The notes under the pieces: model-generated | Seen by the model: only the letters and a program-made list of their open reading frames with translations | The model's database searches: none | Told to the model about the DNA's origin: nothing | Part shown: piece after piece, positions 1,964-2,877 of the stretch | Numbering within the stretch: position 1 is the first letter of the stretch | How the letters are laid out: each line of letters opens with the position of its first letter | Translations under genes and position numbers: made by a program | DNA from: Escherichia coli | GTDB lineage: Bacteria; Pseudomonadota; Gammaproteobacteria; Enterobacterales; Enterobacteriaceae | Direction: 5' to 3' (one strand) | NCBI RefSeq assembly: GCF_003334385.1 | Contig: NZ_QOWN01000008.1 | Length of the DNA stretch: 64,000 nucleotides

Positions 1964-2877
1964 ATATTATCACTTACTGGCGGCTCATACTGAGCTGGTT
2001 AATGCTGTGCACACACAAACAAGCAATTCCATTTGTAATGTGCCTCCCTGGCAGTTTCATCCGGAACCCGGACGAAAGTAAAAATGCATATGAGTTGCAC
2101 TAAAAAAGCGACTCACATTGTTCCGTTATAATGCCTGAAGTAGATCACAGAATATATCTTCAGGGATCGCATATCTATTAAGTTACTCACTCTTTTCTAT
2201 TTATGACATGCGCGTGTTTGTATAAATGTAAATGTGAGTCCTTGTTCCACTCTCGTGCAGCATCGCTGGTCATACGCGAACACGTACCAACAGCAATGGT
2301 GAGGCGGCATCAAGAGCAGGGATCCGTCATTTATCCGAGCATTTTACCCCAAAAACCTTTTATTTATAAGGGTCATTGCGAATTATCTGATGCAAAGTTA
2401 TGTTAGGCAAAGTAATCTTCTATTATTAATAAGCACATCAAAACCTTTTTGAATATTAAATAATAATTAATTAGCATCATCCTCATTCATTAATTCCGCT
2501 TAACAATAGTTTCACACCTTGCCCCCATTGCGACACCTCGGAAATCATCACGCAGTTAAACTCTCCGTAATGAGGAAATATCATCATCGCGTTTCATTAG
2601 TGAATTCTTAAATGAGGCATTTTCACACTATTATCTTACAGATAAAAAAACCAGACCTACAATTAAGAATCAGAACAATTCACTATATAACATTGCATGT
2701 AAAGCATATACACCTCATTATTTTGTCATTATTAAGTTATTAACAGCACAATCGAGCCTTCCCCTCTGGCAAAATCTTATTCTGCAGACCTTCAAAACAC
2801 CGTCCTGGGGGAGTACATTGTTCTAAGCTGACTTCCACGGCAGGGAGTGGCGATAACAGCAAAAAAGGTCAAGATTC

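Follow-up and report, generated by a model that had tools for sequence, protein, structure and literature searches.

The lrhA–alaA intergenic region of Escherichia coli as a divergent control region with a long sRNA-targeted lrhA leader and a chance antisense open reading frame

The region between lrhA and alaA (1964..2877, 914 bp) in the 64,000-nucleotide stretch of E. coli DNA analysed here, hereafter called the window, is very probably the divergent control region of these two genes, comprising two promoters, a long regulatory leader of lrhA and an open reading frame (ORF) that arose by chance. Transcription of lrhA begins at 2334 on the minus strand from a sigma-70-type promoter (TTATAA-17-TAAAAT), and the 371-nt leader so formed is bound by Hfq and paired by the small RNAs (sRNAs) UhpU, ArcZ and RprA near the ribosome-binding site, leading to less LrhA synthesis; chimeras of this leader with McaS are formed as well. 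Transcription of alaA begins at 2826 on the plus strand from TTCAAA-17-TACATT and gives a leader of 52 nt. The AT-rich 491 bp between the two starts are upstream regulatory DNA with a few conserved boxes, for which the roles proposed below are putative. LrhA stands near the top of the hierarchy governing motility, fimbriae and RpoS, and both transcriptional and sRNA inputs converge in this gap. The lrhA–alaA control region is already known and explained and is well studied; a precise coordinate map of it is useful and keeps the chance antisense ORF from being mistaken for a small-protein gene, and the importance of the result beyond such bookkeeping is otherwise low.

The 312-aa LysR-type gene at 1025..1963 (minus strand) and the 405-aa aminotransferase gene at 2878..4095 (plus strand) were named lrhA (b2289) and alaA (b2290), respectively, from the MG1655 record. 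The gap enclosed by them had been picked out from the sequence as one of the longest non-coding stretches, and it was found to be the longest complete inter-ORF gap in the window, in which two larger gaps touch the window ends. The same gap is 919 bp long in MG1655, where it occupies 2,406,642-2,407,560 of NC_000913.3, and the window differs from it by the loss of one GTTAT unit near 2396 and by two further SNPs. All the 5426 complete E. coli genomes carry the gap at 96–99.8% identity, and in 42 of them it was not matched as a single piece over at least 80% of its length. The RefSeq pipeline places nothing in the gap in the records sampled from these complete genomes except an IS1 in one strain, and the MG1655 record has no feature between lrhA and alaA. 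For the comparison across species, the lrhA neighbourhood was fetched from 80 GTDB species representatives, both start codons were located and 71 gaps were aligned to the window, all of them from Enterobacteriaceae in the strict sense. The length of the gap was ~850–1010 bp in 68 of these 71 species (range 764–1140 bp). In a genomic SELEX paper, the lrhA–alaA spacer is classed as a long multi-factor “type-A spacer”.

The sequence-only reading had taken the gap as promoter and 5′-UTR sequence for lrhA and alaA, and this is borne out by mapped start sites on both strands and by the conservation of the corresponding promoter hexamers across the 71 species. The transcription start site (TSS) table of Kim et al, 2012 (PMC3415461) gives a 5′ UTR of 371 nt for lrhA and 52 nt for yfbQ (alaA), and the 51-nt flanks in this table place the starts at 2334 (minus strand) and 2826 (plus strand) of the window, respectively; no further start within the gap is recorded there. 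Furthermore, the primer of the lrhA-lacZ fusion of Melamed et al, 2023 (PMC10578931) begins at the same base as the mapped lrhA start. The lrhA hexamers lie at -35..-30 and -12..-7 relative to the mapped TSS (Table 1), and the TTATAAG and TAAnAT blocks hardly vary among the 71 species, while the sequence just downstream of the start is unconstrained. The hexamers of the alaA promoter show little or no variation among species, and the spacer varies in sequence at a fixed length. The conserved hexamers, together with the variable alaA spacer of fixed length and the unconstrained sequence downstream of the lrhA start, are the signature of working promoters. Thus, the gap has the features of a divergent promoter region, with two outward-facing start sites and conserved -10 and -35 elements at each. 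A consensus scan returned promoter-like matches no more often than expected from shuffled sequences and missed both the real promoters because their -35 hexamers are weak, each matching the consensus at 3–4 of 6 positions. The hexamers given in the SELEX paper (CTGCCA-16-TATGAT for lrhA and TTAAGA-17-TATAAC for alaA) were rejected as they disagree with the mapped starts, and the -10 hexamer proposed there for lrhA overlaps the ATG.

Table 1. Coordinates of the features assigned to the lrhA–alaA gap (window positions)
Feature	Position	Strand	Details
lrhA 5′ UTR, 371-nt leader, Hfq-dependent sRNA target	1964..2334	-	Kim 2012 TSS table; Melamed 2023 fusion primer
UhpU pairing site	1976..1982	-	mRNA CGCCAGU, -19..-13 from AUG; 7-bp complement to UhpU ACUGGUG
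Probable RprA/McaS seed complement	2003..2009	-	mRNA CACAGCA versus UGCUGUG common to RprA and McaS
Probable ArcZ seed complement	2045..2051	-	mRNA CCAGGGA versus ArcZ UCCCUGG
67-aa chance ORF	2203..2406	+	ATG start, 6 Cys; antisense to lrhA +1..+132, overlaps lrhA promoter (-1..-72)
AT-rich shared upstream regulatory DNA between divergent starts	2335..2825	.	491 bp, GC 0.34
lrhA core promoter	2341..2369	-	-35 TTATAA (2364-2369), 17-bp spacer, -10 TAAAAT (2341-2346), TSS 2334
Conserved box TGCGAATTATCTGATG, candidate regulator site	2377..2392	.	-43..-58 of lrhA TSS; 2374-2393 bin 65% identical, 71 species
(GTTAT)n pentanucleotide repeat, 1.8 copies	2397..2405	.	-63..-72 of lrhA TSS; forms 3′ end of 67-aa ORF
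Perfect AT palindrome ATTAA-N7-TTAAT	2455..2471	.	-121..-137 of lrhA TSS; candidate transcription-factor site (putative)
Conserved block GCTTAACAATAGTTTCACA	2498..2516	.	2494-2513 bin 62% identical; CTTAACA and TTCACA recur across genera
alaA promoter	2791..2826	+	-35 TTCAAA (2791-2796), 17-bp spacer, -10 TACATT (2814-2819), TSS 2826
alaA 5′ UTR, 52 nt	2826..2877	+	Kim 2012 start site; 60–90% identity across 71 species
Stem-loop ACUUCC-ACGGCA-GGGAGU	2831..2848	+	+6..+23 of alaA mRNA; RNAalifold helix, 72 sequences

The 5′ UTR of lrhA was described by Melamed et al, 2023 (PMC10578931) as “unusually long 371 nt”, and RNAs made from it were noticed earlier by Bilusic et al, 2014 (PMC4152368), who obtained Hfq-bound RNAs of ~150 and ~350 nt from the gap by Hfq co-immunoprecipitation and also observed a ~1.5-kb lrhA transcript that was increased in the hfq mutant. 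These Hfq-bound RNAs were at first classed as intergenic (“ig-lrhA-alaA”), and they could be read as products of a separate gene for a trans-acting sRNA, equipped with a promoter and a terminator of its own. In the same direction, McaS gave many chimeras with the lrhA leader in RIL-seq, yet had no effect on the lrhA-lacZ fusion (PMC10578931), so that the leader might titrate McaS. We consider such a gene very unlikely. The study that detected the RNAs concluded that they were leader derived and linked them to the lrhA mRNA and its processing (PMC4152368). An Rfam search over 400-4300 at E up to 1 gave no match in the gap and only sub-threshold microRNA-type noise outside it, and the terminator scan found no intrinsic-terminator-like site inside 1964-2877, its sole match being inside alaA. 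In addition, apart from the promoters and the proximal leaders the gap is conserved little above background, and every conserved block in the 71-species alignment can be assigned to a promoter, a leader or a short box. The small RNAs from the gap appear to share the lrhA +1 at 2334 or to be RNase products of the leader. The suggestion in the sequence-only reading that the region could harbour an sRNA or a small protein is thus weakly supported to the extent that Hfq-bound fragments do exist, but these come from the minus-strand lrhA leader and not from an independent gene.

The regulation of lrhA through its leader was shown with an lrhA-lacZ translational fusion, which is repressed by UhpU, ArcZ and RprA, and a compensatory uhpU-M1/lrhA-M1 test was reported in the same study (PMC10578931). 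When the lrhA-M1 gBlock was compared with the wild type, the change was found to be C to G at -16, which is position 1979 of the window and falls inside the UhpU pairing site. The features of a long sRNA-targeted leader are therefore found here, with a mapped start far from the start codon, a promoter matching it and UhpU pairing demonstrated by compensatory mutation (genetics of PMC10578931); association with Hfq is reported from both co-immunoprecipitation and RIL-seq (PMC4152368; PMC10578931). The sRNA sequences used for pairing were taken from the MG1655 record, and their seed complementarity suggests that RprA and McaS probably pair at 2003-2009 and that ArcZ probably pairs at 2045-2051. 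Both these putative sites sit in the conserved proximal leader; GCTGTG is among the most conserved blocks of the lrhA leader, and the CCAGGGA complement is identical among Escherichia species. The use of whole-sRNA duplex energies for finding the sites was given up as it returned long implausible duplexes, and seed complementarity was used instead.

The conservation of the lrhA leader is uneven. Its proximal part (1964-2033) is 65–79% conserved across the 71 species and its distal part (2034-2333) 25–50%, and conservation between genera is confined to the last ~70–95 nt and does not extend to the first ~270 nt. The length of the leader was kept at ~340–460 nt in the 26 sequences checked across genera. 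Between E. coli and the sister species, the identity was 47–56% at 2264-2313 and 100% at 1964-2063. The leader segment 2205-2315 (+20..+130) was seen to be almost invariant within E. coli and nearly unalignable with the sister Escherichia species. The whole leader has a folding z of -2.0. A 5′-terminal leader structure conserved in spite of the turnover in sequence was considered and dropped, because the strong 5′ hairpin of E. coli (z = -2.8) is not shared by the sister species, and these and 23 others do not fold well there. RNAalifold found no consensus pairs in the proximal leader of 27 species. By eye, a short hairpin could be drawn 5′ of the UhpU site with GAGC/GCUC versus GACC/GGUC as alternatives, and indels prevented a clean count. 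On the sense strand, a 28-aa upstream ORF (2060..1974, minus strand) stops 10 nt short of the lrhA ATG; neither its start codon nor its frame is retained outside Escherichia, it has no family match, and it is probably non-functional.

The lrhA leader, which belongs to a master regulator and adjoins a divergent housekeeping promoter, has already been described as a long Hfq-bound and sRNA-targeted leader (PMC4152368; PMC10578931), and it is similar to the sRNA-targeted leaders of E. coli rpoS, flhDC and csgD in being several hundred nucleotides long and bound by Hfq, in having several sRNAs acting near the ribosome-binding site, and in lying downstream of its promoter in a long multi-factor intergenic region. 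It differs from them in that only its last ~70–95 nt are conserved between genera and the rest turns over quickly. RNAalifold and folding z-scores revealed no conserved inhibitory hairpin like that of rpoS in the lrhA leader. At the other end of the gene, just past the lrhA stop codon, we noticed a GC-rich inverted repeat with runs of A and T on its flanks (944-988), which by its appearance looks like the lrhA terminator, possibly a bidirectional one, and which gave only sub-threshold noise in Rfam.

The plus strand opposite the distal leader contains the 67-aa Cys-rich ORF that the sequence-only reading had pointed out and had itself judged most likely spurious. The ORF exists as described, with an ATG, 67 codons and 6 Cys, and the judgement was upheld by its lack of conservation and by a length that chance explains. 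When the 914 bp were shuffled 2000 times with dinucleotides preserved and read in six frames, the median longest ORF was 67 aa, and an ORF of at least 67 aa was present in 52% of the shuffles with any start codon and in 34% with ATG. The 20 nt before the ATG contain no Shine-Dalgarno motif and are pyrimidine rich (CTCACTCTTTTCTATTT-ATG), and a pattern scan found no plus-strand promoter-like site 5′ of 2203. Conservation in other enterobacteria had been proposed as a check, and the ORF turned out to be intact neither in the sister Escherichia species nor in any other genus compared. The identity over its body (2234-2333) is 25–31% across the 71 species, which is effectively background, and translation of the aligned segment showed that the frame is interrupted by stops or has lost its ATG in Escherichia sp. 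L003, E. albertii (L004) and nine other genera, including Citrobacter, Salmonella, Enterobacter, Kosakonia and Buttiauxella.

It could still be argued that this ORF encodes a young Cys-rich small protein of E. coli and Shigella, translated from an RNA antisense to the lrhA leader. The frame is open from its ATG through codon 66 in all the eight E. coli sequences sampled, which were chosen to span the identity range, as well as in many database entries, and it has been deposited in GenBank as a hypothetical protein by some submitters. However, 66 open codons in all eight sequences are expected from DNA that is ~98% identical. Only four SNPs were found in the ORF among these sequences, and three of the four were non-synonymous, a trend that speaks against purifying selection, the counts being small. 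Moreover, the 3′ end shifts frame with the GTTAT copy number so that among the eight sequences the ORF is 67, 78 or 84 aa long and has three different C-terminal tails. When 5.8 billion proteins were searched, the matches were E. coli and Shigella “hypothetical protein” calls only, of 69–94 aa and differing by repeat number, together with one frame variant of 46% identity, and the tails of this frame thus end anywhere from 67 to 94 aa. No match was found in Pfam or NCBIfam, and the RefSeq pipeline makes no call for the ORF in the records sampled from the 5426 complete genomes. With the chance length, the missing Shine-Dalgarno motif, the break in the closest sister species and the lack of any promoter-like or published plus-strand start site upstream, a small-protein gene is extremely unlikely at this position. 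The ORF is very probably an accidental open frame that runs antisense through the lrhA leader and promoter, and no gene. It shares with the chance antisense ORFs that are sometimes annotated as “hypothetical protein” a short length, a restricted taxonomic range, strain-variable boundaries and the absence of a Shine-Dalgarno motif and of a family, and nothing distinguishes it from them.

The (GTTAT)n repeat at the 3′ end of this ORF is a 5-bp indel in comparison with K-12, and alleles of 1.8, 2.8 and 3.8 copies were present among the eight E. coli sequences. The allele frequencies in complete E. coli genomes, estimated from match lengths and identity bands, were ~2% for the 1.8 copies of the window, ~96% for the 2.8 copies of K-12 and ~1.4% for longer alleles, and the protein calls in Shigella flexneri imply arrays of up to ~nine GTTAT units. 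The repeat sits between the lrhA core promoter and the conserved boxes upstream of it, so steps of 5 bp would change their helical phasing, and if phasing matters, the copy number might tune LrhA levels between strains. The gap is also a target of insertions. In strain ETEC1720, an IS1 (locus L002, 1709-2476) was observed to have inserted into the lrhA leader ~200 nt 5′ of the ATG, duplicating 9 bp of target sequence (2163-2171). A Keio strain with IS5 at -137 is known from the literature, where transposon insertions in the gap are reported to cause overexpression of lrhA or pigU or hypermotility depending on their position, and IS elements in the gap are reported from both laboratory and natural strains, altering LrhA/PigU output. 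The alaA–pigU (hexA/pecT) region of Serratia and plant-pathogenic Enterobacterales has the orthologous divergent arrangement, the comparison being one of gene arrangement, and insertions in it raise the expression of the LysR regulator as they do in the lrhA–alaA gap.

The very AT-rich segment that had been noted at about 2400-2720 was confirmed. Its GC content is 0.318, the window as a whole having 0.507, and 321-bp segments as AT-rich as this make up only 1% of those in the window. The GC content is 0.25–0.36 over most of 2350-2750, with a local rise to 0.43 at 2501-2600. This core is mostly poorly conserved but carries three conserved blocks. The box TGCGAATTATCTGATG closest to the lrhA promoter may resemble an Rcs box. 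Conservation in the core is highest in the 2454-2473 bin, with 74% identity over the 71 species, and the ATTAA-N7-TTAAT palindrome in it is invariant in Escherichia, Citrobacter and Salmonella, which makes it a candidate regulator site, possibly for autoregulation by LrhA. Autoregulation of lrhA is described in the literature, which also reports elevated OmpR binding in the region of the AT-rich core, and RNA polymerase holoenzyme peaks were found in the lrhA–alaA spacer in the genomic SELEX paper.

The low GC content of 0.32 and the high divergence between Escherichia species at 2514-2713 (49–67% identity) could also be expected if the core were horizontally acquired or junk DNA, such as a remnant silenced by H-NS, with no regulatory function. 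We regard this origin as very improbable. The gap is syntenic, and its length, held within narrow limits in 68 of the 71 species as given above, argues against junk or foreign DNA. The blocks at 2454-2513 are conserved across genera, and the gap is present in every one of the complete E. coli genomes. Furthermore, the spacer carries no H-NS flag in the SELEX table, while neighbouring rows are flagged. The core is thus best read as the upstream regulatory DNA shared by the two promoters. Other stretches with a GC content of at most 0.33 were seen in the window at 50892-51572, 58165-58798 and 59082-59615, the first of which coincides with a 680-bp inter-ORF gap (50953-51632).

The short leader of alaA contains a stem-loop close to its 5′ end (Table 1). 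Across 72 Enterobacteriaceae sequences the leader varies outside the 13-mer core CTTCCACGGCAGG (2832-2844), which hardly changes. In the alignment, 96.8% of the cells of the helix can pair, and controls with a slid partner reach 39–67%. The closing pair covaries, taking the forms AU, GC and GU, and one inner pair is either U.G or U-A; changes on both sides were seen in only one of the six pairs, and two pairs never vary. The stem-loop had no match in Rfam, and no description of it was found in the literature, including that on alaA with Lrp or CsrA. It may be an RNA element or a protein-binding DNA palindrome, both being equally possible, and the U.G pairs favour RNA. That it is an undescribed cis-regulatory element, serving as a protein or sRNA site that controls the stability or translation of the alaA mRNA, is a tentative and somewhat doubtful reading; if true, this hairpin would regulate the main alanine-synthesising transaminase. 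The stem-loop is also present in the single-sequence MFE fold, and the folding energy of the alaA leader is ordinary (z = +0.8).
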